DNA of 64,000 nucleotides. Origin: Escherichia phage vB_EcoP_PhAPEC5. The DNA is taken from the sequence record NC_024786.1; one strand, written 5' to 3'. The notes beneath the pieces are model-generated. The model was not told the DNA's origin. It saw only the letters and a list, made by a program, of their open reading frames with translations, and ran no database searches. The first letter of the stretch is position 1; every line of letters starts with the position of its first letter. Shown one piece after another: positions 27,527 to 55,689 of this stretch. Position numbers and translations under genes: made by a program.

Positions 27527-27756
27527 CCCATTCAGCAGTAACATAGTCCTGATTGCATAGCACTCTAAAGACAACACTGGTAAGACAGTCCAGTGGCTGC
27601 TAATGTATTGTTATTCCCCTCGACGGGAATTTCGCTAGTGAAGGTAACACTTAAAAATCCAAACCCACGTCTTACTACTATCGGGCTATCAACCCACGGT
27701 CGCTTAACCCTATAGTGGTAGTAGTTTGACGGCCTGCCTCGTTGACTGCGTTAAAG

Positions 27757-28994: not shown

Positions 28995-31900
28995 TTAGTT
29001 TACTAAGTTCATCCAAGGATTCAGGTTATGGGCACGAAGACCCTGACCAAAGCCCCATGAGTAATCCAGACTACCCTTAGCAGCAATGCTAAAGATGTTA
29101 TCCTGAATAGGTAAACCAACGTTACCAAACATGGTAGGAGTTGGAGCCAGCATAGCCATTGCTGCATGTACTGGGTTATTACGAATCATGGAAACTGCAA
29201 CTTTTGCAGAACGAATCTTAAAGTTGTAGAACCACATCAGACCAACACTTTCCATATACCCACGGAAGCGACCAGGTAAACGGTCATAGTTAACGAACTC
29301 TTCCGTCACACGTCCTAGTGCTTCTTCACGAGTCTTACCCTTACGCTGAGTCAATTCATCATAGATGATTGCTTTAGCGATAAAGTCAGAGTACTCAACC
29401 GTCTTCTGTATACCCTGGAACAAAGCAGTATCTTTAGTGATAAGTGCATAGCGACCGGCAGTACGTACTGACTTAGGTAACTTATCAGCCAGCTTATCCA
29501 TGTATTCATGAAGTTTACCTTCAGTAATCAGGATGTCATCACGACCGATACCAGCATCTGCAATTGAAGAGAACTCACCAGCTTCTAACAGAGGCCAGAT
29601 ACTCATACGCTTATGGCTATCAGTAATGGACTGAATCTCAGCCTTAAGTTTACGAATCTGGTTCGGGTTAGTAGCTGCACGTAATTCTGCTTCTGCATCT
29701 ACCTGACGCAGACGAGATTTAAGGTACTGGTTAATCTCAGCAGTTTTCTGTGGGATGCTCTTAGCAATGTTCTTAACTGGTACACCACGAGCAACCATCT
29801 GGTAAAGGTTAGCCAAGAAGTTAACAGCAGGTACGACTACTGACTTAACTACAATCAGAGTCTTAGCTTCTTTAACTAAGTTCTGAACCAGGTTCTCACC
29901 ACCCATTGTGTACTTATAAGCACGGTTGCCAAATACACCCAGCATAGCTTTCTTGAAGGTATCCAGTGTTTCCGGGGACCAACGAGAATTACCAGACCAA
30001 GCATCACCTACAGAAGCTGCACGATAACCAAGTGCATCATTAAGCATGTCACGACGCACCCACAATTCACCCTCACCGAACAAACTCTCTGCTTTCTGAC
30101 GTGTTTCACTGTTCATCAGCTTAAGAGCATCAGCAGTTACTGGGTCCAGTTTTGAACCAAGAAGGTTAACGTACTGGGACTTATTAGAGGCAGACATCTT
30201 AATGTCATTCTCATACATGCTATGCAGGTTCTCAATCAGCATATCGTTGAAACGCTGAGCCTTAGCTTCTTCCACCTGACGACCACGCCATATACCAATT
30301 GCACGGGCAAGATGGTTCTCACCTTCAATATGCTTCAGCATGTTAGGGTCAATGGATTGCTCATAGGCAACCACATTACCTTTATCATCATATACAGGCA
30401 GGAGTGGTTCATTACCACGTTCACCACGAGCCAGTGCTTTAGTGATACGGTCTACGGAAGGCTTGTCAGTGATACGACCAGCTACCATGGAACCCATCGT
30501 AAAGCCTGTGCCGAGGTCTACGCCACCAGCAGTATCACGAACGTTCTGTAGGATACCCTGTGAGAATGGAGCCTGTGCCTGTACCGGTGCGAAGTAGTAG
30601 CTACGTGCCGGACCACGGTTAGCAGAGCTACCCTGATAAGTACCCAGACGTACATAAGATTTCTCAATCAAATCAGCAAACTGATTATCTTCAGCAACAA
30701 TCAGATTAACACCCTGTTTGTTCTCACTAGGGATATGCCCTTTGTACTGGTTCAGGGTTGCACGCATATCAGATTTGGCTTTAGCCATTTCATCTTTACG
30801 TTGACCAACTAGATAAGAGGTAGCAAAGTCCATCCCATCAACTTCTGTCTGAGCCAGTGAAGATAACATCTCACGGTCGGACTTGTTCATTGCTTCCAGT
30901 GCATACAAAGTAATCAGCTTATCCAGTTGAGCTACATCTACAGTAGAGCGAGCAGCCTGACGTTCACCCAGCATACGAGAGATTGCAGTAGCATTACGCA
31001 GCAGGTTATTACCGACTGTACCGTTAATCATGTACTGAGCCAGTTGCTTAGATTTACGGTTAATCAGGGGCCAGTTACGACCAGCTTGCTTCTGCAAATC
31101 TGCTTCCAGCTTGTTCACTTCACGGTCAACAATCTTCTGGTCAGATAGCAGGTCACGGATTTCAGCCAGAGACATAGTGTCACGCAGAACAGCTAAGTCA
31201 GTTTTACCCATACCAGTGTGCATTGCTTTCCACTCATCATTAGTCAGCTTACGGCTGAACTTAGATGCGATAGTGGTAGGCAAATGTTCACGGAATTGTT
31301 GACGGTCAGCTTGTACCTGTGCACGAACTGCTTTAATTAAATCATATACAGAAGCATTGCTCTTAGTACGACCGGTTAAGTCATTAACCAGGTCATGGAA
31401 AGGTTGCCATACCTTACCCTGGTTCATTGCAGCCATAACACCTTCAGCTACGATTGCACCATTCTTCTCTGTAGCAATAGCAGCTACCAGTTGTGCAGCA
31501 TGAGCAGCACCTTTGACCAATGGGTTCTTAGTATTAGCTGCAACTTCACGAGCACTCTCTAAAGCACGAGTAGACAATGCATCAATAGAATCCACCAGAT
31601 ACTGGTTAGCACGGTCAATAGCATTACCACTAGGTGTGGCAACGGAATCATAGAATGACTGTGCATTGAGACTAGTCTGCATGATTGTCTGTGCCAGTGC
31701 ATCCATACCTTCCTGTACGTTAGTAGCTTTAGTGTCACCTGCTACACGAGCATTCAGGCTAGCCATTGCAGCAGTACCAATGTTAGTCAGCATTGCATCA
31801 ACGGTATTACCGGATTGCTTATCTGCTTTCATAACTGGAATGTCAACCAGTACATTACGTACATCTTCACTTACCATTGCCAGAGCTACAAAGGTAGGCA

Positions 31901-34900
31901 GTAAGGAAGAACGACCCTGTGCATCAAACTCAATGTTGTTAGCACCCATGATGGTATCGAACTTCTGCTGTGCATAGTAACGGTCAGCAGGGTTAGTACT
32001 ATCCGGGTCAGCCATGAATGATTCAACGGTCAGGTTCTTGGTAACATGTGCATAGTATTCCTGTGCACGAGAAAGAGCAGCCGGACTAATAGCAGCTTCG
32101 GTAGCCAAAGCAGCAACGATATTAGTGAACAGGCGTTGTTCCTGCATATTCATAGTGAAACCATGAGCCTGAACATCACGGGTTACTTTAGTAGCATTCA
32201 CTACTGCATCAGAGAACTTACCTTTACGAATTACTTGCTGTACTGGTTCTGAACCAATGTAGTTAGTAATCAGCTTATCAAAGGTCTTCCCTAGCTCTTC
32301 CAGACGATTATTGTCACCATATGCTTTGTTATGGAACAAGGTAGTGTCTTTGGATACAGCAGCAGTAGGAGCCTGTCCACGCATAACTACTGAGGAGTTA
32401 AACAGTAATCCTGAGAACATATCATCTGCATTAGCAGGAGCTTTCTTGCGACCAAATACCAGACGCTTGATTGCTTCATATACAGACTGAACCATAGTTT
32501 TCAGTGCTGTGGTCTTCTTCTGCTTACCAATCAGTTCACGGTTGGTTAAGCCCCAAGCCATGTACTCATTCAGTGCAGCAGCTTTAGCCATTGCTGGTTC
32601 AATGAAGCCATTAGACAAATGACCATTAATGGTATTGAGTGCATCAGCATATGCTTCACGTACTGCCGGAGATTCATCCTTAACATCCAGAGTACGGAAC
32701 TGGTTCATCAAGTCTTCAATATTCTGGACTGCTTCGTTAGGAGTACCCTCATAATGAGCCAGTACGGATTCAAAAGTAGAAGCATGTACCAATTCATGAA
32801 CCAGAGTCTCTAAGGAAGGGGTAACTAAGTAGATGGTCTTATCGTCGAAGTTAGTCCAGCCATATGCATTACCCGCTTCGGCAGCTTCAATATCTTCAGG
32901 TGCTGGGCGAGTAATGTTCTTCTCAATAGCGTAAGCATCCAGTTGAGCAGGAGTACCGTAAACAACCTTATAGTCTTTGGCAGCAAGGGAGTTCTGTACT
33001 TCTTTCAATACTGCCTGCTGTTCAGGAGACATCTCTTTAGCCAGCTTAGTGATAGCAGTATTGGACAGCAGACGTACACCAGACTTAAGTACACGACCAA
33101 CCTGTTCCATTGCCGGTACTTCTTTCACTGGTTCTGCTTTAGCAGCACGCACTGCATCACGTCGCTTGTTTAATTCAGCATCAAACAGTTCATTCAGCTT
33201 AGCTACTTGCTGGTCTACCGTCAGACCTTCCAGAGAGATTTTACCGTTGTTCACGTAAGGAGCACCCACAGCAGCCATCTGGTCAACAGTGGTCTGTACC
33301 TGGTTCATTACTTTGTGGCGAATATCTACACCCAGCGCAATGTTACGCAGGTTACGTTCAATCTGTTCAGCACCTACACGTAACAGGTCATCGGTAGCAC
33401 CTTCACGCTGGTCATATTCCAGAGCAGATTTAGCGATAGCCTGTTTGGTTTCATCAGACAGTTTGCTGAAATCTACATTCTTCATGAACTTAGCATAGGA
33501 GTCATAAACATTCTTGATAGGGTTCCCCTGCCAAGAAGTGTATACAGCCTCGTTAGCTTTACGACTTGCATCAGTGATGTCATTGATACCAATGTTCATA
33601 CCATCAAAGATTTTCAGGGTATTCTTCGGAGCACCTTTCATAGTAGAAAGGGTCTGCATCATCATGCCATCACCAGTGCCGATGGTCATAAATGGAATAC
33701 CTGCAACACCTGCCTGAGAAGGAGCATAGATGCTCATTGGCACACGCATACGGTCATCTAAGTTGGTAGCCAGTACTTGGTTAGCAACATCAGTATTCTC
33801 ACTACCAGCAATGTAGAAAGTCTGTGAACCAGTCTCAATCATTGGAGCCAGCGGAGATAATGATTCCTGGATTTCATTCAGTTCTTTCTGAGTTAAGAAA
33901 TCACCCTTCTTCCAGGTTGGGTCTTTTTCTTTTTCTGCCAGCTTAGCCTGTACTGCTTGTTGGAACATATCCTGCAATACCAGAGACTGAATCTGGGTAG
34001 CCTTCTGCAAGTTCTCAGTAGAGTGCATCAGACCATCGCCAACAGTATTCTGAATACCAGTACGCATTGGTTCAACGAACAGGTGGAGCATGTTCTCTTG
34101 TAAGTTCTTCAGGGCATTACCGGATACGGTAAATTTCTGAGGGTCTAACTTACCAGTCAGAGCACCATCTACTTGCTGAATAGACAATTCACCTTTACGC
34201 ATAACTGGAACATTGCCAGTCAGTGCTTCCATAGAAGTAAGGAAAGTATCCAGCATTGCCTGAGCATCAGCTTCAGACGCAGCCTCCTTACCAAACATTG
34301 CCATAGCTGGGGAAATGCTAGGGTCAGCAGCCCGTGCTTGCAGAACGTCACTGAAGCGTTCGTAGATGGTGTCAGTAATTGCACTAACCATCTTGCCAGC
34401 AATACCACGTGCACCAGAACCATAGATGGTAATGGTAAGTGGGTTCTTAGCGATACCACGTTTCAGGTCCAGAGTACCGTCTTCATTCAGGTTAAAGTCT
34501 TTAATGAACAGGTCCATTATCTTCTGGAGATGATTCATCTGGCTCATAACAGGAACGTTGTTACGGTAAGTAGTACGTAACTCATTCAGTGCTTGTTGAA
34601 GACCATTGGTAGATGCTTCATACAGGTCAACACTGTCATCCTGTGAACGATGTTCGTTCATAGTCTTACCGGCTTTACCGAAGAACAGACCACCTTTAGC
34701 AGTATTCTTAATCCAGTCTGGGGTGAACTTACCACCAGTCATTAATACCATTGCGTTAATTGGGCCGTTGGTTACACCATCAGCTTCAACGTACAGTGGG
34801 GTATTAAAGTTGGCACGGTCATCGCTGTTCAGGTAACGGGCATATTCCATCAGAGCCATGAGAGCTACGAAGGATTTGTCACCACCCAGGGAGGTCTTAA

Positions 34901-37900
34901 GAATATCTACTGCATCAGCAGGCAAGTGACCAGACTTATCAAACTCAACCATCATATCAACAGCAGGTTTCAGATTACCTTCCAGAGCCTTGGTCAGCTT
35001 TTCAGACATAGCTTCACGGGACATGTTATGTACCTTGATACCTAATGCCTGAGCCAGGCCTACCTGGAAGTCAGAGAACGCTTGGCTGTTTTCATTACTC
35101 AAGTCGATAGTAGAGAAGGTCGGCAGAATTGCTTCACGAACCAGTTTACTGGATTGTGGGTTATTCTTACCAAGCATCTGCATACGACCTACACGGGTCA
35201 TGTTGTAACCGTAGTGAATAGGTGTATCCAGACCAGCTTCTTGTTCCTGTACCTGATTAATTACACCGAACAGGGAATCATATGCCATAGACACAGACAG
35301 GTTTTTACCTTCCAGTGACTTAGCAGTGTTCACGTTCAGCAATTCAGGATTAAGAGTACCAGCTCCCATCAGCTCCAGAATATTGTCACGGCCCATTGCT
35401 TCATAGAAGTTAACCATCGGCATGTGCACACGGAACTCAGTAGCCTGTTCGGCTTTCAGAGCAGCTTTCTGTTCTGGGGTATTCTTAACAGCAGGGTTAC
35501 GCAACTGAGTTTGAGCCACGGAAGGAATGTCATCACCAAAATACATTTTCTCTTCTGGTTCTAAGAGGACAGCTTCCTCAATAGCAGTAGGGAACTTGTT
35601 AATGGCATCGTTATCATCCAGCTTCTCAATAGTATACAGGCCAACAGTCTTATTGGAGTCTGGGTCAATCTCAGACACATCCAGCATAGACTCTTTAACT
35701 TCACCCATCTCAATGAGGGAAGACAGAATCTCTGTAGCCATTGCCATAGGAATACCCTTGGTATAACCCAGTGGTGCATTAGGGTTACGATTCAAACCCC
35801 AGTAGGATTCAATCTTCTGAGCCAGTGAGTTAGTAGCTTCAACCAGAGTCTGGGCATTCTCAAACTCAGCCAGAATACCTTCTGGTAACAGAGATGCTTC
35901 TACACCAGTAATAGCAGCTACGTCTTTCATATCTTTAACGGCAGCATTCTGTGTAGCAGTCAGTCGCCATTGCAGTCCAGCAAGTACAGCAGTCTCTAAC
36001 AACTGGTCATTGAACTTAAAGGTATCTCCGTCTTTCTCTACGATGTTAAGTAACTTACCACCTACCCAACGGTTAGCTTCAGTACCTTCTGCAAAACGTT
36101 TACCAACATTCTTATTAGCAAGGAACTTAGCCAGTCGCTCAGACAGAGTAGTCTTCAGAGTTTCCCCAAAGTCCATCAAGTCCTGATAACGTTTCATCAC
36201 ATCACTAGTGAGAGCGTTATTTTCTTTTTGAGTGAATGCTTCAAAGCGAGCAGCAGAAGAGAGTGCTTGCTTAATATCAGCTAAAGGAGATTCAGAACCA
36301 ATGGTACGAGACTTAGGTTCCTCTGGTAAGGCAAATGCTTTCAGGAACTGGTTCGGTGTCTTTTCATTGTTATAGACAGGGAACACTGTTTCCATTTCAG
36401 AAAGAGGTTTGCCACCCACTGTATATTCTGCTTTCAGCTGAGCCAGTGATACTTCATCCTTCTCCACGTTGTTAGTGTTACGACCAGAGGTATCTACACC
36501 AACCAGAATCTGTGCATTATTAGCTTCAACGAAAGACTGAACAGTATTGAATTGTTCAGCAGTCAGCTTCTGATTATCAAACAGTTGCAGAGATACGAAT
36601 GGTTGCTCACTACCTTTGTAGAAGGTAGCACGTACAGCACCTGTATCCAGAGACATGTCACGATAGCCATCATGACCAAATACGTCAGACAGGCTGATAT
36701 GGTCACCATTAGAACCAACCACAGTACCATCAGCAAACAGCCATGGACTCTCTCTACGGTCACCATACTTATTAAGAGTTTCCTGTGAAATAGTATTTTC
36801 TTTCACATAAGCATCTACTGTTTCAGATTCAGTAGTAGAGACTTCTTCTGCTTTTGGACTAGTCTCCTTAGTAGGAGCAGTCTTATTTTCTACCACAGGT
36901 TTAGCTTTAGGCTGTACAGTAGTAGTGTCCTCTTGCACTGGTGCAGGAGATTTATCAACCCGATTCACTGGTTCATTAGTCTGTTGAGACTGAGTGGCAT
37001 CAAGACCACCTTGACGGAACTCTTTAACTACCTGGGCAGCTGGCTTGTTCAGACGTGAATCTAACGAGGTAACTTTCACATGAGAAACATTAAGCTCCGG
37101 GTAAGCCGTAGCAAGTGCATTAGCAATATCAGCTACGGTCTTGGCTTCCAGTCCTACTTGCTGGGCAAACTTAACAGACTTGGTATCGTAAGGATTGACA
37201 CCGAGGCCAGTACGACTACGTACCCATTCACGGGAAGGCGAGAGAGCCTGATAATGAACAGACTTATTCTTATCCGCATTCCCCGAAATCAGATGCTCAT
37301 TCAACGCTCCGACCTTATTCTGCATGTGCTGGGCGAACTTCATAAAGTCGCTCAGATAAGCGGAGGCCAAATCGAAGTTACCAGAGTTATACGCAGAACG
37401 AATGCGTTTCGCATGTTGCAACGCAGAGTACTGTCCTTCATTAGAACGAGACTCATCGGTTTTAATCTGTTTACTAACAATATCTTGAGGACGTAAGCCT
37501 AGTTCTTCTGCTTTAGCGTCGAACTCACGTGCACCCTGTAACAAGGCAGCAGCAGATTGCAGGGCAGCACGTTGACGATTCCCCAGTGTAATCTTACCTT
37601 CACTTGCATGCTTCAGAACCATGTTCACTGAGTCTGCATCCAGTACTTCTGGAGATACATCAGCAGCCATAGCAATATTGTTTGCTTGGGCTTGATTAGC
37701 TTCTTCAGTAGATTTCAGCTTACCTGCTTCAGCCTGTTCCTGAATCATGGAATGGATGGCACGGAATGCACGAAGTACTTTCGGGGTATTCTGTACGTTA
37801 GCCATCAGGCCGGAGAACTGGTCAACAATTGCAGCAGCAGGAGAACCTTGTTCCAGATTAGCCAGAGCACCTGGGTCACGGTTAATGAAGCTATCCATAG

Positions 37901-39728
37901 ACATGATGTTGTCATACATCTGGATTGCAGCTTCCATTTGAACGTTAGGGTCTTCAGCAGTATTAACCAAGTCAGCCATCTTCTGAATAGCTTCTACACG
38001 GTTAGTGGAACCAGAAACAGCTTCACGGATTGCCGGATTAGCTTGTTCTAATTCTACTGGGTCAAAGTTCATTGCCTGTGTTAAGTCAGAAGCATATTGG
38101 GTAGCAGCAGCTTTCTCTTCAGGAGAGATGTCCATTGCGTCTACTGCTTCCTGTACAGTCGCCTGTGCTTGCTCTGCTTGAGCAGTAGCTTCCTGTGCAG
38201 CAGCACTAACCGTAGCATCAGCTACAGGGGATGCCTGTTCATTACGCTTAGCAACTTCTTCTCCACGTTGAACCAGGATGTTAGTAATAGGGGAGGCAGC
38301 TTTTGCTAATGCATTACCAACCAGAGAAGCACCAGCCAGGGTAGTACGTACAGTAGGAGCAACGGCAGCACCAGCAGCTTTAACAGTTGCACCAGGAGCT
38401 TGAGCAACTCCAGCACTACCGAAGCCATAGAGTGCACCAAGACCTGCTTGTTCACCGACCCCTTTGAGGGTATCACGGGATGCATCAACATTTTCCTTGA
38501 TTGCAGTGTTCTGTGCGAACTGTCCGAAGCCGGATTGAATACCTTCTTCAACTGTTTCACGCAGCATATTAGAACCAGCACCTGCCAGTGAACCTACCTT
38601 AAGTGGGTTAAGTTCAAAGCGAGATACCAGTGGACCGGTAGCAGCAGCAACTGGAGCAGTTAAGCCAGCAGCAGTGATACCTGTTTCAGATGCAGTCTGA
38701 CGTCGTGCTTCATCAGGAGATAAACCATCAGCAATATGCTGTTGGTAAACAGGAGACTTACTTGCCAATTCTTGATGGGACATCTTCATGATTTCAGAAG
38801 CAGTCTGTTGGTATGCACCACCAGCTTCCATGCCACCGATTGCTACAGCAGGTGCAGCAACACGACCAGCAGAGAGTGCAACCTGTGCAGGACGTGAACC
38901 TAACCCAGCAGCTAAGGTAATACCCTTAACAGCTTTGTCACCACCTACCATTACTTTACCAAGTGCAGATACACCACGAATAAGTGGACCACCAGTAAAG
39001 AGGGAACCAATACCTTCGCTCAATCCGTCGGAAGCAGCCATACCATTATCAAGTGTATTAGCAACAGAATCAAAAGCGTCACGACCAATGCGAGACAAGG
39101 AGGCAACCAAATCACTCTCCCCGTTTTTAATGTCTTCTTCGTAGAGTTTCTGGTTCTCTTGTGCAGTAATCTGGTTCTGATTCTGAACAACTTTACGGGT
39201 AGCAGTCAGTGCATCAGACTGTAGATTGTGTACACCTTCATTCAACCAATCCATCCCGGAAGCAATGGATGCCCCGGCATTATCATTGACCAGACCTGTG
39301 CCAAGAGCAGCAATGCCCCCAAGGGTATTAGCAACACCAAGACCAACACCAGAAAGAGTATCGCCAAATGCTTCTGCGTTAGTACGTTGTTTAGATAAGT
39401 CCTGACGTACAACATCAGCAGCATTAGCTCGGCTATTAATAATCTGTAGACCTTGCTCATTACCATACTTATTAAGGATTTCTAATGGGGAGGCTTGTGT
39501 GAAATCAGCCTGAAGTGAACCTGGTTCGAATGCACCGATTCCAAGATTACCTACTCGTCCAGTCTGGAGATTGTAAGCATTCTCTGGGGTTAATTGGAAA
39601 GGGCTTTGCCCTTGTGCAGCTTGCTTCTGGGAGGTTGCAGTAGAGACATCGACTTGCTTAGCATTAGTGATGCTGTCTGCGAAACCTGCCAGACGGTCAA
39701 ATGTTGACATAGCATGTTTCCTGTTCAA
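28995..39728 (-). CDS. virion-encapsidated RNA polymerase (N4 gp50-like giant vRNAP)
   Basis: Single 3,577-aa ORF at the start of the minus-strand late block; size and position match the approx 3,500-aa N4 vRNAP. Confidence 0.85.
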   Translation of the reverse strand: MNRKHAMSTFDRLAGFADSITNAKQVDVSTATSQKQAAQGQSPFQLTPENAYNLQTGRVGNLGIGAFEPGSLQADFTQASPLEILNKYGNEQGLQIINSRANAADVVRQDLSKQRTNAEAFGDTLSGVGLGVANTLGGIAALGTGLVNDNAGASIASGMDWLNEGVHNLQSDALTATRKVVQNQNQITAQENQKLYEEDIKNGESDLVASLSRIGRDAFDSVANTLDNGMAASDGLSEGIGSLFTGGPLIRGVSALGKVMVGGDKAVKGITLAAGLGSRPAQVALSAGRVAAPAVAIGGMEAGGAYQQTASEIMKMSHQELASKSPVYQQHIADGLSPDEARRQTASETGITAAGLTAPVAAATGPLVSRFELNPLKVGSLAGAGSNMLRETVEEGIQSGFGQFAQNTAIKENVDASRDTLKGVGEQAGLGALYGFGSAGVAQAPGATVKAAGAAVAPTVRTTLAGASLVGNALAKAASPITNILVQRGEEVAKRNEQASPVADATVSAAAQEATAQAEQAQATVQEAVDAMDISPEEKAAATQYASDLTQAMNFDPVELEQANPAIREAVSGSTNRVEAIQKMADLVNTAEDPNVQMEAAIQMYDNIMSMDSFINRDPGALANLEQGSPAAAIVDQFSGLMANVQNTPKVLRAFRAIHSMIQEQAEAGKLKSTEEANQAQANNIAMAADVSPEVLDADSVNMVLKHASEGKITLGNRQRAALQSAAALLQGAREFDAKAEELGLRPQDIVSKQIKTDESRSNEGQYSALQHAKRIRSAYNSGNFDLASAYLSDFMKFAQHMQNKVGALNEHLISGNADKNKSVHYQALSPSREWVRSRTGLGVNPYDTKSVKFAQQVGLEAKTVADIANALATAYPELNVSHVKVTSLDSRLNKPAAQVVKEFRQGGLDATQSQQTNEPVNRVDKSPAPVQEDTTTVQPKAKPVVENKTAPTKETSPKAEEVSTTESETVDAYVKENTISQETLNKYGDRRESPWLFADGTVVGSNGDHISLSDVFGHDGYRDMSLDTGAVRATFYKGSEQPFVSLQLFDNQKLTAEQFNTVQSFVEANNAQILVGVDTSGRNTNNVEKDEVSLAQLKAEYTVGGKPLSEMETVFPVYNNEKTPNQFLKAFALPEEPKSRTIGSESPLADIKQALSSAARFEAFTQKENNALTSDVMKRYQDLMDFGETLKTTLSERLAKFLANKNVGKRFAEGTEANRWVGGKLLNIVEKDGDTFKFNDQLLETAVLAGLQWRLTATQNAAVKDMKDVAAITGVEASLLPEGILAEFENAQTLVEATNSLAQKIESYWGLNRNPNAPLGYTKGIPMAMATEILSSLIEMGEVKESMLDVSEIDPDSNKTVGLYTIEKLDDNDAINKFPTAIEEAVLLEPEEKMYFGDDIPSVAQTQLRNPAVKNTPEQKAALKAEQATEFRVHMPMVNFYEAMGRDNILELMGAGTLNPELLNVNTAKSLEGKNLSVSMAYDSLFGVINQVQEQEAGLDTPIHYGYNMTRVGRMQMLGKNNPQSSKLVREAILPTFSTIDLSNENSQAFSDFQVGLAQALGIKVHNMSREAMSEKLTKALEGNLKPAVDMMVEFDKSGHLPADAVDILKTSLGGDKSFVALMALMEYARYLNSDDRANFNTPLYVEADGVTNGPINAMVLMTGGKFTPDWIKNTAKGGLFFGKAGKTMNEHRSQDDSVDLYEASTNGLQQALNELRTTYRNNVPVMSQMNHLQKIMDLFIKDFNLNEDGTLDLKRGIAKNPLTITIYGSGARGIAGKMVSAITDTIYERFSDVLQARAADPSISPAMAMFGKEAASEADAQAMLDTFLTSMEALTGNVPVMRKGELSIQQVDGALTGKLDPQKFTVSGNALKNLQENMLHLFVEPMRTGIQNTVGDGLMHSTENLQKATQIQSLVLQDMFQQAVQAKLAEKEKDPTWKKGDFLTQKELNEIQESLSPLAPMIETGSQTFYIAGSENTDVANQVLATNLDDRMRVPMSIYAPSQAGVAGIPFMTIGTGDGMMMQTLSTMKGAPKNTLKIFDGMNIGINDITDASRKANEAVYTSWQGNPIKNVYDSYAKFMKNVDFSKLSDETKQAIAKSALEYDQREGATDDLLRVGAEQIERNLRNIALGVDIRHKVMNQVQTTVDQMAAVGAPYVNNGKISLEGLTVDQQVAKLNELFDAELNKRRDAVRAAKAEPVKEVPAMEQVGRVLKSGVRLLSNTAITKLAKEMSPEQQAVLKEVQNSLAAKDYKVVYGTPAQLDAYAIEKNITRPAPEDIEAAEAGNAYGWTNFDDKTIYLVTPSLETLVHELVHASTFESVLAHYEGTPNEAVQNIEDLMNQFRTLDVKDESPAVREAYADALNTINGHLSNGFIEPAMAKAAALNEYMAWGLTNRELIGKQKKTTALKTMVQSVYEAIKRLVFGRKKAPANADDMFSGLLFNSSVVMRGQAPTAAVSKDTTLFHNKAYGDNNRLEELGKTFDKLITNYIGSEPVQQVIRKGKFSDAVVNATKVTRDVQAHGFTMNMQEQRLFTNIVAALATEAAISPAALSRAQEYYAHVTKNLTVESFMADPDSTNPADRYYAQQKFDTIMGANNIEFDAQGRSSLLPTFVALAMVSEDVRNVLVDIPVMKADKQSGNTVDAMLTNIGTAAMASLNARVAGDTKATNVQEGMDALAQTIMQTSLNAQSFYDSVATPSGNAIDRANQYLVDSIDALSTRALESAREVAANTKNPLVKGAAHAAQLVAAIATEKNGAIVAEGVMAAMNQGKVWQPFHDLVNDLTGRTKSNASVYDLIKAVRAQVQADRQQFREHLPTTIASKFSRKLTNDEWKAMHTGMGKTDLAVLRDTMSLAEIRDLLSDQKIVDREVNKLEADLQKQAGRNWPLINRKSKQLAQYMINGTVGNNLLRNATAISRMLGERQAARSTVDVAQLDKLITLYALEAMNKSDREMLSSLAQTEVDGMDFATSYLVGQRKDEMAKAKSDMRATLNQYKGHIPSENKQGVNLIVAEDNQFADLIEKSYVRLGTYQGSSANRGPARSYYFAPVQAQAPFSQGILQNVRDTAGGVDLGTGFTMGSMVAGRITDKPSVDRITKALARGERGNEPLLPVYDDKGNVVAYEQSIDPNMLKHIEGENHLARAIGIWRGRQVEEAKAQRFNDMLIENLHSMYENDIKMSASNKSQYVNLLGSKLDPVTADALKLMNSETRQKAESLFGEGELWVRRDMLNDALGYRAASVGDAWSGNSRWSPETLDTFKKAMLGVFGNRAYKYTMGGENLVQNLVKEAKTLIVVKSVVVPAVNFLANLYQMVARGVPVKNIAKSIPQKTAEINQYLKSRLRQVDAEAELRAATNPNQIRKLKAEIQSITDSHKRMSIWPLLEAGEFSSIADAGIGRDDILITEGKLHEYMDKLADKLPKSVRTAGRYALITKDTALFQGIQKTVEYSDFIAKAIIYDELTQRKGKTREEALGRVTEEFVNYDRLPGRFRGYMESVGLMWFYNFKIRSAKVAVSMIRNNPVHAAMAMLAPTPTMFGNVGLPIQDNIFSIAAKGSLDYSWGFGQGLRAHNLNPWMNLVN

Positions 39729-49333: not shown

Positions 49334-51604
49334 TTACAGGTTCATGCCAAGAGCCGATGATGGGTCTTGACTAGGGTCATAGTATTGGGAACCAAGTGAA
49401 TAAGCTGGGTCTTGTTGAGCAGCTATGTCACGTTCTTGTGGAGAGTTCCCATCAGTCAAAGTATTATATCCAACAGCAGCAGATATGTTGGGGGTAGTTT
49501 CCCCTTCTTTAATGGGTGTTGTCAATGCCTTAGTTATCTGAAGGTTCTGGTTTCCTTGAGATTGTGCTTTTTGTTTTTCCATATCACGAGCATGTTTAGT
49601 ACCAGATTCCTGTTCCAGATAATCCAGGTCTTTAAGGTCACCAGCAGAAGCAGCCTCTTTAGCCTTAGCCATATTGAGTGCAATCTTGCTTTGTAACTCT
49701 TCATTCTCAAGCTGTGCTTTCTGAATTGCCAATTGCTTAAGCTGTTCTTCCATAGGGTCTGGCTGTGGTTGCCAAGTACGTAACTCATGAGCCAGGTCAG
49801 GCATACGTTTAAGTTCTGCAATCTTAGCTACAAGAGATAATGTAATAGTCTGGTCAACCGTATTACCCAATGTTTGAACCATGAAGCTCAAGTCCTGTGA
49901 CTTCTGGTTATCAATTTCAGCAGTGTTAATATCAACCTCAATGTCGAAGTTACCTTTAAGATCTTCACGGTTAATCTCTACATACTGTTCGTTAGTAATA
50001 CGTACTACTTCCTTCTCTGATAAGAACACAGCATTCATTGCGCAAATCTTAGTACCAATGTCTGCCATACCCTTAGCTAATCGACGAAGGATTGCCATCT
50101 CGCGTTTAGATGCTGCATCAAGTGCACCACGAATACCAGCAGCAACATCTCCATAAGCTGAACCAGTTACGCCACCAGAGAATGCTTTAACACCTGTTAG
50201 TGATTCAGCTTCCTGGTTTTGCATCTGAGTCATTACTATTGCCGACTGAGGTAACTCAGGGAACTTATGTTCCATAATGGACTGACTGGGGTTACCTTGC
50301 ATTGGGTTATATTCATAGTCTTGTCCATCATCATATCGACGACGGTTCAAAGTATCTAACATCCCTTTAGGATAACCACGCTGTCCGTTTGCACTTCGAC
50401 CCAGTAGGTCAATCATTCCACGCATAGTTGCACCAAGAATTGCTTGATTATCCCCTAACAGTTCAGCATCAGCTTCACCAAAGAGTTCACGTTTACGTGG
50501 CATGTATGGAACAACTACCAAAGGTAACTTACCATCAGGGAATGGGTTCTTCTCCATACGAATAAGGGTGGAACCAATCCAGGTAGCAACAATTGGTTCC
50601 AGTGAACCATCATCATCAATGTCGTAGAATCCCCAGTACTCATAAGCAACTACTTTCTTGCGTAGAGCATCCTTAAACTGGAAGTCACTAGGAGTTTTAC
50701 TTTCATGGTCTGGGTCAGTCATAGGACTGGAGCTTTCCCAGTCAATCTTATCTAGGTTGTGATAACGGTCTTTGTTCTTCATGAGGTCTGCTTTGCATGT
50801 CTCGAATGAGATAACTGCATACAGAGCCTTATCCAAATCACCATTACAGCTTGGGTCAATAACTACGTTGTTAGGGTTAAGCATCTCAACAGTAGGTCTG
50901 TTAACCAATGCCTTCTCTACTTCTACCTCAGTAACCCCAGTCTGGATTGCATATGTAGCTTCTCCAGTTTCATTGAAGTAGTTAACAGCTTCCTTGATAT
51001 CTTCTGGCATCGTCTCATCATACTCACGAGGATTCTCTGCCTGAAGCTGAAGAGCCTGTTGAAGAACATCTGCTTGTTCCTGGTTCTCAATTGGATACAA
51101 CTGAAATACCGGAGTTTCTGTTTTAATCTTAACAGTCTTACGTTCCCAACCGATACGAGCAATACCAGTACCATCATCTACGACACTATGTACGTAATCA
51201 TCTACCAGTTTTACTTTATTAAGCTGAGTACGGAATTGGTAGTTAAGCACTAACTCATTCTGACGTGCAGCTAACTCATCTTCAAAAGTAACAGGTGTTA
51301 GCTTAAAGAGTTTACTGGATGAGAGGAATGGTTCAGACAATGGTGCATAACGCCACTCTGCCTGACGGCGAACCAGTCTAGGTTGGACTTGTGAGCGTCC
51401 CTTAACCTTTGGGGGTTTAGCCTTACCCTTAACTTCCATCAAGTCATTCCACTCACGAATCTGTGACATGATTGCATCGTGAGCAGGTTTAGCTGATTCC
51501 AAATCACCCTTCAGTAATTGTATACTTGGTTCCTTCTTCCAGTCCGTTAGCTTCTCTGATTGAGCCGGGTCTGGTAAAGGCTTAAAAGTGTCTTGGTGTT
51601 CCAT
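49334..51604 (-). CDS. portal protein
   Basis: 756-aa ORF with size and position matching N4-type portal; C-terminal acidic/Gln-rich tail. Confidence 0.65.
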
Positions 51605-51612
51605 AGTTAATC

Positions 51613-52134
51613 CTATTCAAAAAGTTTACGGTCAGCCTGAATTTGTTTACCCAACTCAATTAGTTGGTTGTCACGGAGTCTAACAGTTGCCCGGAGTTCT
51701 TCAACCAAACGTCTGCCTTCTTCAAGACTGTTGTCGAGTCTGGCTGCATGGCTTGCAAGACTTCTGCACTCAAGGGTTCCGGCTTCGGCTTGACGTTGAT
51801 ATACCGATGCTCGTCTTTCAGACTGTTGCATCCGGCTGTCGTAATCACTGCTAACGCGAGCAAGCTCGCTTGCGTAATTACTCTCAGCCGTCTGCAACCG
51901 GGAAGTGAGTAACCCGACTTCATAACTATGGTTTCTTTGGAGAGCATTGTATTTGTCCTGTAGTTTTTGTGTTGCCTTCAGGTCTTCAACCTTTTGGGCA
52001 TCCCACTTCTTTTGAACAGTAGACTGTCCATTAGAATTGCCCCAAAAGTAAATGGTGGCCCCAAGGACCACCACCAGAAGATAAGGCCAACCTTTAGAGA
52101 TTAGCATCTTCATTACATGCCTCCAGTGGTACAT
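51613..52134 (-). CDS. Rz-like i-spanin
   Basis: N-terminal TM segment ([16 protein letters not shown]) followed by coiled-coil-rich periplasmic domain; adjacent to endolysin; contains embedded lipoprotein ORF. Confidence 0.6.
51660..51923 (-). CDS. Rz1-like o-spanin (lipoprotein, embedded in Rz in an alternative frame)
   Basis: Signal peptide with lipobox-like TAGC ([14 protein letters not shown]), Pro-rich short mature part; entirely inside the Rz ORF. Confidence 0.55.
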   Translation of the reverse strand: MKSGYSLPGCRRLRVITQASLLALAVITTAGCNSLKDEHRYINVKPKPEPLSAEVLQAMQPDSTTVLKKADVWLKNSGQLLDSVTTN

Positions 52135-52729
52135 TACCGATTCGGTTAGCTACCCAACCATACGTAAAGTCTGGCATGTTCAATGAGGTGTAGTGGTTCA
52201 GTTGTTTAGCATCAAGTAACTTAATCATTACCTGACATGCTGCAACTTTGCCTCGTTTTTTCTGTAATGCTTTATATGCATTAACAGTACCTGCACCGAC
52301 TTTACCATCAACTTGTACTTTAGGGTAGTCTTTGCCATTACGGGACATTTCATTAAGAGATTGCTGCAACCACTTAGCTGGTCTAGTTACACCGGTATTA
52401 ACCCCAGCATCAACCAGTTTGTGTGTTACAGCAGGAGATATATCAGCGAAGGCTACGAAGTTAGGTTTAAGTACGTAGTCATCAATGTATATCTCAGCAG
52501 CCATCTCTTTAGATAAACCCCTCATGGAACCATCCCAACCATACTCAGTAGCCAGAACTTCTTTATGAGACTTAGCTACTGATTGGGTAATACCATGATT
52601 AGTTTCCCCACCTGGGTCACGAGGATTGTTTACGTACCCTCCTTCCATATAGAACACTGCCCCCAGAATAGCAGCGACAACTCCTCCCACTGCACCACCT
52701 TTTGCAGCAAGTTTCTGTTTAGCTTTCAT
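52094..52729 (-). CDS. endolysin, GH108-type N-acetylmuramidase with SAR-like N-terminus
   Basis: Motif EGGYVNNPRDPGGETNHGIT typical of glycoside hydrolase family 108; Gly/Ala-rich weakly hydrophobic N-terminal segment. Confidence 0.75.
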   Translation of the reverse strand: MKAKQKLAAKGGAVGGVVAAILGAVFYMEGGYVNNPRDPGGETNHGITQSVAKSHKEVLATEYGWDGSMRGLSKEMAAEIYIDDYVLKPNFVAFADISPAVTHKLVDAGVNTGVTRPAKWLQQSLNEMSRNGKDYPKVQVDGKVGAGTVNAYKALQKKRGKVAACQVMIKLLDAKQLNHYTSLNMPDFTYGWVANRIGNVPLEACNEDANL

Positions 52730-53045
52730 GAGAATCTTCCTTTGGATGGAATCGTATTAGTCTGCCTACAATGTTTAAGGCAAACAGTGCGATTGTAATA
52801 CTGGAACCATGTGGAATATCTTCAAGGATGTGACGAGGTAGTCCTGTCAGCATTGGTTGGATAATATCTACAGCAGAAAACAGAATTAATCCAAATGTAC
52901 TAATCTGAACAGATGCCCACTTCCAGGACTTCTTCCAGTTAGGTACTAGCCCTATCTTTCTTTTTAACCTGCAAACCATGCGAATATCTCCCGTCTTGCA
53001 GCAGCCAATACACCAATAATTGCACCTGCCCCAGCCCATACCCAC
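52719..53045 (-). CDS. holin-like membrane protein (putative)
   Basis: Two hydrophobic segments (FGLILFSAVDII, ITIALFALNIV) with charged C-terminus; directly upstream of endolysin. Confidence 0.35.
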   Translation of the reverse strand: MGMGWGRCNYWCIGCCKTGDIRMVCRLKRKIGLVPNWKKSWKWASVQISTFGLILFSAVDIIQPMLTGLPRHILEDIPHGSSITIALFALNIVGRLIRFHPKEDSHES

Positions 53046-53296
53046 TTACCAAAAATTCCAGCACCAGCAACTTTATGTTTAATGGTGATAAACTCTTCGA
53101 TGGTAGGTTCAGACTTAGTGATGCTCTCCTCTACCCGTTTAAGTCGGGTACTAAGGTCGCCCATAGACTCACTTAGCTTTTTAATAGACTCTTCCATTTT
53201 CTCCCTTTCTCCCGATTCACGAGTTTGGTTTTCGAAAATGTTTCTCAGTCTCTCTTCGAGTCTGGCTAGAGTTACGTTATCCGGTTCATTTCCCAT
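52964..53296 (-). CDS. coiled-coil protein with C-terminal TM segment (holin/antiholin candidate)
   Basis: N-terminal charged coiled-coil, C-terminal GAGIFGKWVWAGAGAIIGVLAAA TM-like segment; overlaps the next ORF by about 80 nt. Confidence 0.3.
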   Translation of the reverse strand: MGNEPDNVTLARLEERLRNIFENQTRESGEREKMEESIKKLSESMGDLSTRLKRVEESITKSEPTIEEFITIKHKVAGAGIFGKWVWAGAGAIIGVLAAARREIFAWFAG

Positions 53297-53553
53297 AGGG
53301 GATTTCTCAGGTTAGTTAAGTCAGGATTGACTGAAACAGTCTACATAAAGGATTGTTTGCGGTACAACAAAAACCCACCCCTACAGCCTAGTTGGCAGGT
53401 TGGAACCTGAAACATCGAGTAGCAATTGGGTCAACAGCAGTGAACACCAAAACAGTAAAACCCACATGGAGGCAATGAGCCTACGATGGGTCCCGATAAT
53501 TCAATACCCTTCTGATGATAAAACTAGCCCCACTTCGGTGGGGCTAGTTTTAA

Positions 53554-55689
53554 TTAAATCAATCCGTAAATGGTATTGTGTATTACGACGCCACCAACAA
53601 CAGAGGAAACGTTGAAATTAATTTCAGCTTTGTAAGCTCCTTGCGGAACGCAATCCACCAAAGCATAAAAGTTGAACGTGTTCCCTACTGGGATGATGTA
53701 CCCTATGGAATCTGCTACAGCATTCCCCAGCTGGTCCAAGAATCTCAATGACACCAGGGTGGTTGTTGTACTCTTAGACCAAAAACCAAATTGAAAGTAA
53801 CGCCCAGGTTCACAGTCAATAATTGTTTGGGTGAAGTTAGCTGCTGCGTCAACCGATGGCACAGATAAAACAAAAGAAGTTGAAAACATTAAATCATTAG
53901 GGACATCGTTTCCTACAGTAGCAGTGACAATGCCGGTTCCGGTTTGCGAGAGTGTCCAGTTAGATATGTTATTAAACTGCCCAGACCCATTACTAATACT
54001 ATTAATATAGGGGCTTACAATGCTTCCTAGATTCCAGTTAGTTGTGATGAATCCTGCACGGGGGAAGCACCCACGTGATGTAATCTTCTTACTAGAGCCA
54101 CCTACTAACTGACGGGTTGGAAATCCAGTACCTACAGTAGTGTTACCATACAGTGGAAGTGAGCAGTTATTAAAACTAACTACCCCGTCACCGTTACTAA
54201 CAATAGGCACTGTACTGTAGCCTTCCGGAAGCAGAAGCGTAGAATCTTTAATACTGAGTCGGGAGCTTCCATTCACAGTAAAGACTACAAAACTCTGCCC
54301 AGGTTGATACTCAATATTACCGTTAGCAAACACCAAGGTAGCATTATCACCCAATGCCATTACCGGGTCGAAGTAGCCTGCCTTTTTACCTGCTGGCAAT
54401 GAGCATGAATCAAAGATGAACTGCCCATTCTCAAAGGTAAATGGACCTCCATTATCAACCATCCAGCAGTGGTTGAACTTTATAACCTCACCTGCATTAG
54501 CCGGGGAATTAAAGATTACAGAGTTAGTAAAACTACGAGAAATGATGCACTTATCAAACAGGACACGATATGCATTATCTTTAAACTCAATACCCGCAGT
54601 AGATATAAACCCGCAGTTAGATATACGTAATTCTGCTACCTCCCTTGAGGTGCTACCACCCAAACACATCTTTCGAGCACCTTTACCTACAAAGGAGATT
54701 CCTGTTAATAAGGCGGTAGCATTAATGGCATCACGGGCTGTGTAATCTGTATTAGAGTTGGTTACGATTAAGTAATACTCCCCTGTTAAACCTTCCACTT
54801 CCGTAAGGGTACACTTATTAGCTCCTACTAAAGATCCCTTAGCCACATCCAGTACGATAGGTGCACTAATGGTCCCTGAGGTAGGTACAAGACAGTCGTA
54901 ACCGGCAGAGTTTACCTTGTTAATGAACGGAGCAATATCCCCCGTACCGGTATACCCAGCATCATACACGTCCACGGTGCCGTTGAAGAATTTCCTTTTC
55001 CATACCACCCCACTTCCTAAGAAGGTAACAATATTGTCTATAGTGGTATCCTCACTAACAGCTACCATAATACCACCACCAAGATTAAACCCGCTCACAT
55101 ACGAATCAAGGATTATGGAATCGCCGATTGATCCTGATAATGATGATAACTCAGAAACCGATGATGCAGTTCCTATATAAGATAAGCCATTTGGTTTATT
55201 TAAATCACTCCTAAGAGCGTCAACACCAACACTAACCCATGCTCCCAGATCAATTCCGCCAGTTGAGGATGGGGTAGTCCCAGCAGGAACCTCTTTAGGC
55301 AGTGCCCCATCCCAACGGTATTTACCATCAGTAAATACAACCAGTTCATTCTTAGCATTAACAGTTACGCCAGTAGCAAATGTATCGGGTAAGGTTACAT
55401 ACTCTTCCCGGGTAACAGCTAGAGCACCTAAGTCCACACTACCAGCAGAATGTACTAATATACCGGAAGTACTAAGACTTACAGCAGTAACCCCTGAATC
55501 AATGTCAGCAGGCAATGAGTAAGCTAGCTGAGTCGTCTTGTCATAAATAACTTTATAACCACTAAGCAGTGCACCAACCGAGAAGTAAACAACTTCGTTC
55601 TGCTTAACACCAAATTTACGGGCAATGGCTTGCTTATTGGTGAGAATACCAGTAGAGCCTTTACCGCCTTGTGAGAATAACTCGTTCAT
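53554..55689 (-). CDS. tailspike/tail fiber protein with beta-helix-like repeats
   Basis: 711 aa; Gly/Ser/Thr/Asn-rich with repeated hydrophobic beta-strand rungs (NCGFISTAGIEFKDNAYRVLFDKCIISRSF...). Confidence 0.55.
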   Translation of the reverse strand: MNELFSQGGKGSTGILTNKQAIARKFGVKQNEVVYFSVGALLSGYKVIYDKTTQLAYSLPADIDSGVTAVSLSTSGILVHSAGSVDLGALAVTREEYVTLPDTFATGVTVNAKNELVVFTDGKYRWDGALPKEVPAGTTPSSTGGIDLGAWVSVGVDALRSDLNKPNGLSYIGTASSVSELSSLSGSIGDSIILDSYVSGFNLGGGIMVAVSEDTTIDNIVTFLGSGVVWKRKFFNGTVDVYDAGYTGTGDIAPFINKVNSAGYDCLVPTSGTISAPIVLDVAKGSLVGANKCTLTEVEGLTGEYYLIVTNSNTDYTARDAINATALLTGISFVGKGARKMCLGGSTSREVAELRISNCGFISTAGIEFKDNAYRVLFDKCIISRSFTNSVIFNSPANAGEVIKFNHCWMVDNGGPFTFENGQFIFDSCSLPAGKKAGYFDPVMALGDNATLVFANGNIEYQPGQSFVVFTVNGSSRLSIKDSTLLLPEGYSTVPIVSNGDGVVSFNNCSLPLYGNTTVGTGFPTRQLVGGSSKKITSRGCFPRAGFITTNWNLGSIVSPYINSISNGSGQFNNISNWTLSQTGTGIVTATVGNDVPNDLMFSTSFVLSVPSVDAAANFTQTIIDCEPGRYFQFGFWSKSTTTTLVSLRFLDQLGNAVADSIGYIIPVGNTFNFYALVDCVPQGAYKAEINFNVSSVVGGVVIHNTIYGLI

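Follow-up and report, generated by a model that had tools for sequence, protein, structure and literature searches.

The question raised by this locus is which of two small, overlapping membrane-protein genes upstream of an endolysin gene triggers lysis, and where each of them begins. The preliminary description of the window (the whole 64,000-nucleotide stretch of DNA that was analysed) recognised a lysis cassette at 51613-53296, left the holin/antiholin identities and the true starts unresolved, and is right on all main points: every ORF was recovered where it had been placed, and the ORF list gives five tightly packed lysis genes on the minus strand (Table 1). Successive genes overlap by 16, 11, and 20 nt, and the portal gene (ATG 51604) begins after a gap of 8 nt; all five share one strand, with the tail-fibre/appendage genes on one side and the portal gene on the other, and the set is transcribed on the minus strand within the late region. 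The source phage is a Gamaleyavirus, of the G7C-like N4-like podophage lineage; the cassette region has 97.7% nucleotide identity to PhAPEC7 and 96.4% to G7C, and 55 phage records cover at least 80% of it. Gene anatomy, homology, hydropathy, the lipobox, start-site conservation, and dual-frame selection were all observed at this locus itself. We hold with considerable confidence that it is the N4-type multigene lysis cassette of Gamaleyavirus, in which a gp63-like protein would be the pinholin and a gp62-like protein an accessory regulator, together with a SAR endolysin and the spanins Rz and Rz1. For this reading the preliminary description had named two ways to fail, the lack of a predicted lipoprotein signal in the embedded ORF or missing transmembrane helices upstream; neither arose, because the lipobox is present and both upstream membrane-protein ORFs have hydrophobic helices. 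A search of NCBIfam returned nothing above cut-offs for any of the five proteins.

Table 1. Features of the lysis cassette and its upstream flank; roles of the two membrane proteins are putative, by orthology to N4.
Feature	Coordinates	Strand	Description
gp63-like gene	52964..53296	minus	ORF of 110 aa; putative pinholin
gp62-like gene	52719..52979	minus	86 aa from ATG 52979; putative lysis regulator with accessory holin-like activity
SAR endolysin gene	52094..52729	minus	211 aa; GH108 + PG_binding_3
Rz i-spanin gene	51613..52113	minus	166 aa from ATG 52113; GGAGG before the ATG
Rz1 o-spanin gene	51660..51947	minus	95 aa; embedded in Rz, +1 frame
Intrinsic-terminator hairpin	53524..53551	minus	GAAG loop on a stem of 15 bp in the fold (flanking A-U pairs counted), then UUUU

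The functional role suggested for each protein comes from experiments on the N4 cassette, gp63-gp62-gp61-gp60/gp60a, reported by Awuah et al. (bioRxiv 10.1101/2025.11.12.688109), where Stojkovic and Rothman-Denes (2007) is cited for the gp61 muramidase. Like the N4 cassette, this one sits between tail genes and the portal gene, with the same gene order and strand; the likeness extends to global amino acid identities of 59, 53, 66, and 55% for gp63, gp62, gp61, and gp60; to an identical Receiver motif, a 56-aa mature o-spanin, and a SAR-type endolysin N terminus; and to a gp62 ATG and Shine-Dalgarno sequence lying inside the 3′ end of gp63 in both phages. It is on 53-59% identity to the N4 proteins that the probable roles of the two membrane proteins rest. 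The two cassettes differ in that the gp63-like protein here does not have N4’s alternative Met13/Met17 starts, has a weak Shine-Dalgarno sequence in this lineage (ΔG −2.7 vs about −6 in N4), and diverges over its N-terminal 60 residues, and in that the endolysin here has an ATG start and 3 additional residues. Moreover, lysis regulation may differ from that of N4, since the lysis inhibition of N4 is reportedly absent from G7C, a sequenced relative of this phage.

As a discovery the cassette matters little: records of near-identical phages already annotate it, and its counterparts in N4 have been taken apart genetically. The five-gene set is already known: G7C gp60, gp60′, gp61, gp62, and gp63 are the same five genes, annotated there as Rz, embedded Rz1 (gp60′), an N-acetylmuramidase, gp63, and, in its short form of 261 nt, a “putative holin”; the Bas96 record likewise annotates all five, the o-spanin included. 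G7C, PhAPEC7, and Bas96 share 96-98% nucleotide identity with this cassette and differ from it in annotation only. The value lies in correcting that annotation. RefSeq/GenBank records call the gp63 homologues “hypothetical” or “tail length tape-measure protein” and the gp62 homologues “holin”; by N4 orthology, then, the most likely lysis trigger is mislabelled, and the holin label sits on the accessory protein. Rz1 is often missing from public records or given inconsistent starts: the PhAPEC7 RefSeq record cuts Rz to 72 aa and omits Rz1, and the annotated Rz1 start makes the gene 372 nt in G7C and 264 nt in Bas96. Together, the start-site and dual-frame analyses yield a coherent gene model for the genomes of Gamaleyavirus, a genus that supplies candidate therapeutic phages.

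The GH108 motif that had been noticed in the endolysin corresponds to matches to PF05838 Glyco_hydro_108 (E = 6.4e-20; 71.9 bits against a gathering cut-off of 21.2) and PF09374 PG_binding_3 (E = 4.1e-8; 33.7 bits against 24.6), and the protein carries an EGGY motif, is 66% identical to N4 gp61, and aligns with Sen1395 (PDB 6V3Z; E = 1e-27) across EGGYVN...GG.T..GIT; it belongs to the GH108 N-acetylmuramidase class. Its N terminus is likewise SAR-like, as proposed: MKAKQKLAAK (net charge +4) precedes an uncharged stretch of 18 residues, GGAVGGVVAAILGAVFYM, with 50% Gly+Ala and a Kyte-Doolittle (KD) value of 1.87, and the signal-anchor-release domain spans residues ~7-28 (52646-52711). The combination of a weakly hydrophobic, Gly/Ala-rich TMD, a basic flank, and a muralytic domain is that of a SAR endolysin. 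N4 gp61 behaves as one; its Sec-dependent export, membrane tethering, and release, either on depolarisation or stochastically without a holin, have been demonstrated, and rapid-lysis mutations in N4 put a charged residue into its SAR domain (10.1101/2025.11.12.688109). The endolysin gene does overlap Rz, by 20 nt from the Rz ATG that is backed by a Shine-Dalgarno sequence; an overlap of 41 nt is obtained only with the maximal Rz ORF.

The gp63-like protein has one hydrophobic segment, at its C terminus (a single 19-mer peak, KD 1.59, at residues 81-99); the TMD, at ~52997-53071, is 56% Gly+Ala, and its topology is ambiguous, with basic residues flanking both sides. The N-terminal domain is helical/coiled-coil and was assigned to the cytoplasm. 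Between the two lies the juxtamembrane Receiver motif PTIEEFITIKHKV (53069-53107), identical in N4 gp63, to which the protein aligns over its full length, with conservation of T65 and T71, the sites of N4 gp63 rapid-lysis mutations (10.1101/2025.11.12.688109). The protein thus has the traits of the gp63 family: a length of about 110 aa, an N-domain that is helical and variable, the Receiver motif, and one C-terminal TMD. Pfam has no family for it; PHROG 5211 (function unknown) matches at E = 7e-49. Related loci were initially sought with Rz alone, which gave 8 close relatives; this search was replaced by a gp63 alignment seeded with the PTIEEFI and FGKWVW motifs, which gave 50 related loci, and since the loci were seeded with both motifs, the invariance of these motifs in the set is partly ascertainment. 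An exhaustive, unseeded HMMER search with residues 60-110 returned 58 representative clusters, all of 63-137 aa and matching towards the C terminus, bar one repeat artefact, with Receiver variants that include PTIQEF, PTIKEF, and PALAEY. The Pfam and PDB matches of the family are all to generic coiled coils. Homology to XhlA-type “hemolysin” was considered and rejected: the gp63-like protein has only one weak match, to PHROG 1193 (E = 4.3e-4), and none of 32 family members examined matched XhlA in Pfam. Traits of the S21 type were also sought in the gp63-like protein, which has a single TMD, no Pfam holin match, and no second Met near its start; it would act like a pinholin but is not a member of the S21 sequence family.

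The database labels invite the opposite assignment, in which the gp62-like protein is a true class II holin and the gp63-like protein an antiholin, a regulator, or an unrelated structural protein. In its favour, the gp62-like protein has two hydrophobic segments in the maximal ORF (53045..52719; 108 aa), with KD peaks of 1.72 and 1.45; the two TMDs have an N-in/C-in topology, with a +7 N-terminal tail in the 86-aa form; PHROG 1356, “holin”, is matched at E = 6e-30, alongside Pfam DUF7940 (E = 1.3e-13); and N4 gp62 shows lethality on CCCP treatment and releases lambda R slowly, so that the split between holin and regulator is not a clean one (10.1101/2025.11.12.688109). Nonetheless, most of the N4 genetics points the other way (10.1101/2025.11.12.688109). 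N4 gp63, and not gp62, complements an S21 pinholin defect; it forms small holes, does not rescue a lambda S105 defect, and kills irreversibly once the membrane is depolarised. Six rapid-lysis alleles map to gp63, clustering in its Receiver domain, and none of more than 60 mutants to gp62; deletion of gp63 selects compensatory SAR-domain mutations; and gp62 is a non-essential lysis regulator whose deletion leaves plasmid-driven lysis unchanged. Distant N4-like loci retain a gp63-like gene beside the endolysin, including those in which a gp62 homologue could not be detected. Nor is there support for the tape-measure label on gp63, which is 110 aa long, carries its TMD at the C terminus, and draws no Pfam match. 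We consider it improbable that the holin label is on the right gene, and the question of identity that had been left open is now largely answered: N4 orthology suggests that the gp63-like protein is the pinholin and the gp62-like protein the accessory.

A related reading would make gp62 itself a dual-start gene, with the long form (106-108 aa, from ATG 53039 or GTG 53045, overlapping gp63 by 76-82 nt) acting as the antiholin, in the manner of lambda S107/S105. The frame is indeed open from 53045 here, in G7C, in N4, and in many relatives, and Awuah et al. give N4 gp62 as 109 aa with two alternative starts, which they liken to the dual-start motif (10.1101/2025.11.12.688109). Against this, when gp63 was randomised synonymously, the start codons at −82/−76 were always present (P = 1.0), because they are forced by the Trp codons of the gp63 KWVW motif, and the extension frame was open by chance at P = 0.19-0.61. 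Shine-Dalgarno energies are −3.3/−3.6 kcal/mol at the long starts, near the background mean of −2.6, vs −7.4 kcal/mol at the short start, where GGGAG (52988-52992) and ATG 52979 lie inside the gp63 3′ end and the gp63 codons E103 (GAG) and A106 (GCA) are invariant. Synonymous diversity in gp63 is 0.333 where the extension overlaps it and 0.335 outside, so that the test for a dual start found no synonymous constraint. Finally, stops close the extension in L016-18 of the related loci, where gp63 is 84% identical to that of this phage, and in six further lineages (L034, L039, L043, L047, L061, and L062), and the short start persists. A second, antiholin isoform is likewise improbable, and the comparative evidence favours a single 86/87-aa gp62 over the 109-aa form of the N4 authors. 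By the same comparison the short start and its 16-nt overlap are favoured over the overlap of about 80 nt given in the preliminary description; 82 nt is what the ORFs yield mechanically, because the longest ORF was taken for gp62, but the figure depends on the disfavoured starts at 53045/53039.

For the spanins, both genes were found as described, with Rz1 wholly inside Rz in another frame and with a lipobox that matches a PROSITE-style pattern. Rz (maximal ORF 52134..51613, 173 aa) matches the Rz-like spanin PHROG 6197 (E = 1.3e-77), and its Shine-Dalgarno energy is −9.3 at ATG 52113 vs −2.8 at the maximal-ORF ATG 52134. It has the layout of a type II i-spanin: an N-terminal TMD (KD peak 1.61, residues 10-28 of the maximal ORF), a periplasmic helical domain, and a single Cys116. 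Translation from ATG 51947 would give an Rz1 precursor of 95 aa, and from ATG 51923 one of 87 aa; the Cys of the TTAG|C lipobox (codon 51828-51830) is residue 32 from the latter and residue 40 from the former, beyond the usual 15-35 window, and the ATG at −39 from the Cys is kept in L019 and L026, where the one at −31 is lost. Cleavage there would give an o-spanin lipoprotein of 56 aa, which is predicted to be sorted to the outer membrane because it has Asn, not Asp, at +2. The description of Rz1 as Pro-rich was overstated: mature Rz1 has 4 Pro in 56 residues (7%), with a short KPKPEP stretch only. Lambda Rz1 is about 25% Pro, and Pro-richness is a trait of that protein rather than a requirement of the class.

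The length of the embedded ORF was discarded as evidence for a gene, since a 105-codon open +1 frame is not rare when Rz is randomised synonymously (P = 0.025-0.16); conservation across related loci was used instead and is decisive for Rz1. That the frame is merely a chance opening in Rz, as its unremarkable length and the absence of any Pfam or NCBIfam match would allow, is extremely unlikely. An embedded +1 ORF with the lipobox Cys is present in every related locus with an Rz1 match, and the mature protein is mostly 56 aa (54-63 in a minority); tblastn identity of Rz1 in these loci is 40-87%, compared with 35-84% for Rz itself, and is 60% to N4. Furthermore, Rz synonymous diversity falls 2.8-fold, from 0.227-0.234 elsewhere to 0.082, exactly over the mature Rz1 overlap. 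This is an embedded o-spanin architecture with both frames under selection, and the N4 counterparts, gp60/gp60a, are spanins that complement lambda RzRz1 (10.1101/2025.11.12.688109).

By orthology to N4, lysis would proceed as follows. The gp61-like GH108 muramidase would be exported by Sec, its SAR domain keeping it in the inner membrane in an inactive state. The gp63-like protein, tail-anchored, would accumulate in the inner membrane and trigger as a pinholin, depolarising the membrane; the SAR domain is therefore proposed to slip out, and the enzyme to degrade the murein. The gp62-like protein, probably coupled translationally to gp63 through a Shine-Dalgarno sequence and ATG within the last 30 nt of that gene, may act as an accessory regulator with weak, late holin-like activity. 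Rz in the inner membrane and the outer-membrane lipoprotein Rz1 would then disrupt the outer membrane.

Three other systems are worth comparing. S21/R21 of phage 21 has the same logic, in which pinholin-driven depolarisation frees a membrane-tethered SAR endolysin, and no sequence relationship to this cassette. S21 has two TMDs, the first of which is itself a SAR domain, and a dual-start antiholin; in the gp63-like protein, by contrast, a long cytoplasmic N-domain is followed by one TMD at the C terminus. R21 is a T4-lysozyme-type enzyme, unlike the GH108 endolysin here. Lambda Rz/Rz1 is likewise a two-component spanin with the o-spanin embedded in the i-spanin +1 frame, and is also unrelated in sequence. 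XhlA/XhlB of Bacillus prophages resembles the gp63-like protein in architecture, with an N-terminal coiled coil and a C-terminal TMD, the gene lying just before those for a small multi-TMD protein and an endolysin; this resemblance is one of analogy, not membership.

Phages that are 90-100% identical in the flanks have 31-66% nucleotide identity across ~53097-53557, the region that encodes the gp63 N-terminal domain and includes the upstream intergenic segment; on its 3′ side this region stops precisely at the Receiver motif. It is tempting to see here a recombining divergence island, a swappable, lineage-specific timing or sensor module that sets whether and how an N4-like phage delays lysis. 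We put this forward as a long shot; if true, it could account for lysis inhibition in N4 and its absence in G7C. No sigma-70 promoter was found upstream of gp63 on the minus strand, in a scan that excludes N4-type late promoters. An intragenic “terminator” annotated in PhAPEC7 within Rz (52051-52075) was set aside; it is without evidence of function, since it lies inside the Rz TMD-coding segment and the scan gave 3 terminator-like sites against 2.2 expected. The hairpin that separates the cassette from the tail-fibre gene upstream, whose stop is at 53554, is of a different order: its fold has a ΔG of −26.1 kcal/mol (z = −6.18), none of 200 shuffles folds as well, and the PhAPEC7 record annotates a terminator at the equivalent position.

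The locus is an already known feature: the preliminary description of a lysis cassette was confirmed, and the evidence also bears out its interpretation, after some refinement. What is shown directly here is the gene anatomy, the homology, the start sites and the selection. An ORF listing over window 50500-54500, plus reading of the DNA, recovered all five of the ORFs previously claimed, on the minus strand and where they had been placed (see table). When window 51400-53500 was compared with phage genomes by megablast, Escherichia phage vB_EcoP_PhAPEC7 matched at 97.7% identity; ST4, SP5M, E20, Bas96, F22 and G7C matched at 96-97%, and 55 records had at least 80% query coverage. The matching phages belong to Gamaleyavirus (Schitoviridae, Enquatrovirinae) and are kin of coliphage N4, in which the gene order is identical. 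Annotation differs among the records: G7C lists gp60 (Rz), gp60' (embedded Rz1), gp61 (N-acetylmuramidase), gp62 (putative holin, 261 nt) and gp63 (hypothetical), and Bas96 explicitly annotates an o-spanin, whereas in the PhAPEC7 RefSeq record Rz is cut to a 72-aa fragment and Rz1 is absent. The region is labelled RIIA/RIIB lysis inhibitor in OY979416.1.

Lysis cassette and flanking features, in window coordinates
Feature	Coordinates	Strand	Length	Remarks
gp63-like ORF	53296..52964	-	110 aa	ORF listing
gp62-like maximal ORF	53045..52719	-	108 aa	ORF listing
Endolysin ORF	52729..52094	-	211 aa	ORF listing
Rz maximal ORF	52134..51613	-	173 aa	ORF listing
Rz1 ORF	51947..51660	-	95 aa	wholly within Rz ORF, different frame
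Tail-fibre gene	53554..55689		711 aa	flanks cassette
Portal gene	49334..51604		756 aa	other flank of cassette
Terminator hairpin, strong	53524-53551			between tail-fibre gene and cassette; dG -26.1, z -6.2

The N4 cassette was genetically dissected in a 2025-26 preprint (bioRxiv 10.1101/2025.11.12.688109). There, gp61 proved to be a SAR endolysin, and complementation of lambda RzRz1 succeeded with gp60/gp60a. The gp63 protein, 110 aa long with a C-terminal anchor, is irreversibly lethal; it complements the S21 pinholin, whereas lambda S105 is not complemented; rapid-lysis mutations such as T65I and T71A cluster in its juxtamembrane "Receiver" domain. N4 gp62 is non-essential, has late, CCCP-triggerable holin-like activity and is termed a lysis regulator, and G7C is cited as having no lysis inhibition (same preprint). 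Amino acid identity between the window and N4 is 59% for gp63, 53% for gp62, 66% for gp61 and 55% for gp60. The Receiver motif is identical, with T65 and T71 conserved; Met13 and Met17 of N4 gp63 are Leu in the window, and so the alternative N4 start is absent. We infer the activities of the window proteins from this orthology, and the N4 model, so transferred, is the best-supported fit to the cassette. The SAR endolysin would be held tethered in the inner membrane; the gp63-like protein would trigger as a pinholin and depolarise the membrane, whereupon the SAR domain would leave the membrane and murein would be degraded. The gp62-like protein, translationally coupled to gp63, would tune the process, and Rz/Rz1 would disrupt the outer membrane.

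The endolysin bears out the GH108 motif and SAR-like N-terminus previously ascribed to it. It matches Glyco_hydro_108 (E=6.4e-20) and PG_binding_3 (E=4.1e-8) and aligns with solved GH108-type structures, e.g., 6V3Z (E=1e-27), and it begins with MKAKQKLAAK followed by 18 uncharged residues, 50% Gly+Ala, by composition a textbook SAR sequence. NCBIfam gave nothing above its cut-offs for the cassette proteins. Rz has an N-terminal TMD and matches PHROG 6197 "Rz-like spanin" (E=1.3e-77). The SD evidence favours ATG 52113, with GGAGG upstream (dG -9.3), over the maximal-ORF ATG 52134 (-2.8); ATG 52107 shares the SD of 52113 at longer spacing. From ATG 52113, Rz is 166 aa, and its reported overlap with the endolysin holds, at 20 nt.

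The embedded Rz1 frame occurs in every related locus with a detectable Rz (32-87% identity in diverged loci by tblastn), always in frame +1 and contained entirely within Rz, as had been described for the window, and with the Cys conserved. Mature length is 56 aa in most of these loci and 54-63 aa in a minority. In the window, Rz1 matches the lipobox pattern at the Cys and has Asn at +2. "Pro-rich," however, was an overstatement: the window's mature protein of 56 aa has one Cys and 4 Pro (7%). The 95-aa precursor from ATG 51947 is slightly favoured, because a modest SD (-4.0) precedes this codon and because it is kept in L019 and L026, two related loci without an equivalent of ATG 51923, which itself has no SD (-0.9); a long signal peptide of 39 residues would follow. 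ORF length alone is indecisive (P=0.025-0.16, synonymous randomisation). Rz synonymous diversity among 15 enterobacterial genomes stands at 0.227 ahead of the overlap and 0.228 in the stretch coding for the Rz1 signal peptide, sinks to 0.082 across mature Rz1, and is back at 0.234 beyond it, a pattern that dual-frame purifying selection would produce.

The gp62-like protein matches Pfam DUF7940 (E=1.3e-13) and PHROG 1356 "holin" and has two hydrophobic segments and an N-terminal tail of +7. Both upstream membrane-protein ORFs of the preliminary description are present, but not their overlap of about 80 nt if the conserved gp62 start is used. In 50 related loci collected by gp63 alignment, the overlapping frame carries an ATG (window 52979) 16 nt ahead of the gp63 stop in all enterobacterial loci, and most distant loci with a gp62-like ORF have a start within ~22 nt of that stop. 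This short start has a conserved GGGAG SD (dG -7.4 to -8.9 kcal/mol), and the gp63 codons that supply SD and ATG, E103 (GAG) and A106 (GCA), are invariant in 15 genomes while their neighbours vary synonymously. For N4, a 109-aa gp62 and alternative starts are described (bioRxiv 10.1101/2025.11.12.688109). In the window, a long isoform might also be made from GTG/ATG at -82/-76 (53045/53039), but it bears no signature of selection. The SDs there are -3.3/-3.6 versus a background mean of -2.6; in synonymous randomisations of gp63, a start codon at these positions is forced by the KWVW motif (P=1.0), and the extension frame is open by chance at P=0.19-0.61. Synonymous diversity of gp63 is 0.333 where only the extension overlaps, against 0.335 in the conserved part free of any overlap, and stop codons close the extension in related loci L016-18 (gp63 84% identical to the window), L034, L039, L043, L047, L061 and L062. 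From these sequence comparisons, we conclude that the conserved product is the 86-aa form, overlapping gp63 by 16 nt.

In the gp63-like protein, residues 1-75 form a charged helical N-domain; next come the motif PTIEEFITIKHKV, the segment VAGAGIFGKWVWAGAGAIIGVLAAA, whose uncharged core is 56% Gly+Ala, and a short tail, RREIFAWFAG. Its one family match is PHROG 5211, whose function is unknown. A word-seeded search gave 344 homologue clusters, none of which carries a Pfam domain; their names are "hypothetical" or "tail length tape-measure protein," and many of the largest contigs are ~70-74 kb. An exhaustive HMMER search, run with residues 60-110, gave 58 representative clusters, 57 of them 63-137 aa long with the match towards the C-terminus; the remaining one is a repeat artefact. 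When 32 members were scanned against Pfam, and in a PDB profile search, the only matches were generic coiled coils. The "tape-measure" name is widespread, in NC_019423.1 (IME11), OM982646.1, OP870143.1, MH358458.1 and UniRef, for homologues that orthology to N4 makes likely pinholins; the mislabelling is plain in RefSeq IME11.

A divergence island at ~53097-53557 covers gp63 codons 1 to ~66 and the upstream intergenic region. Against ECBP1 (L026), nucleotide identity is 90-93% where the tail-fibre gene ends (3′), drops to 31-66% in the intergenic region and the first ~66 gp63 codons, and reaches 93-100% once the PTIEEF motif begins. The 3′ boundary is the same in IME11-type alleles (L020, L022), and the N-domain has at least 4 allele types among cassettes otherwise 95-98% identical. 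In the window/G7C lineage the gp63 SD (53297-53318, upstream of ATG 53296) is weak (dG -2.7 kcal/mol), unlike the TAAGGA of IME11-type alleles and N4 (-5.8 to -6.0); this could influence how much pinholin is made and when lysis occurs.

In six distant N4-like metagenomic loci (L035, L040, L052, L055, L056 and L059), a gp63-like gene lies near an endolysin gene, directly upstream in four and separated by a small membrane-protein ORF in L035 and L040. These endolysins are of types with no relationship to GH108 (Phage_lysozyme, PF11860 Muramidase, Amidase_2, Hydrolase_2) and apparently soluble, since all lack an N-terminal hydrophobic segment. If gp63-type proteins form pinholes only, these phages would require another holin; several of the loci have a different two-TMD ORF after the endolysin.

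The segment encoding the Rz TMD contains an 11-bp hairpin followed by a T-rich tract (52051-52075, minus strand), for which PhAPEC7 has a terminator annotation; a scan found 3 terminator-like sites versus 2.2 expected by chance, and the hairpin is probably not significant. Elsewhere, a 3577-aa ORF (28995-39728, minus strand) matches in size the giant virion RNA polymerase characteristic of N4-like phages, in keeping with the taxonomic assignment. The only tRNA gene in the window (27452-27530, plus strand) is tRNA-Ile by ARAGORN, with the unusual anticodon AAT, and is confirmed by Rfam (62.4 bits).
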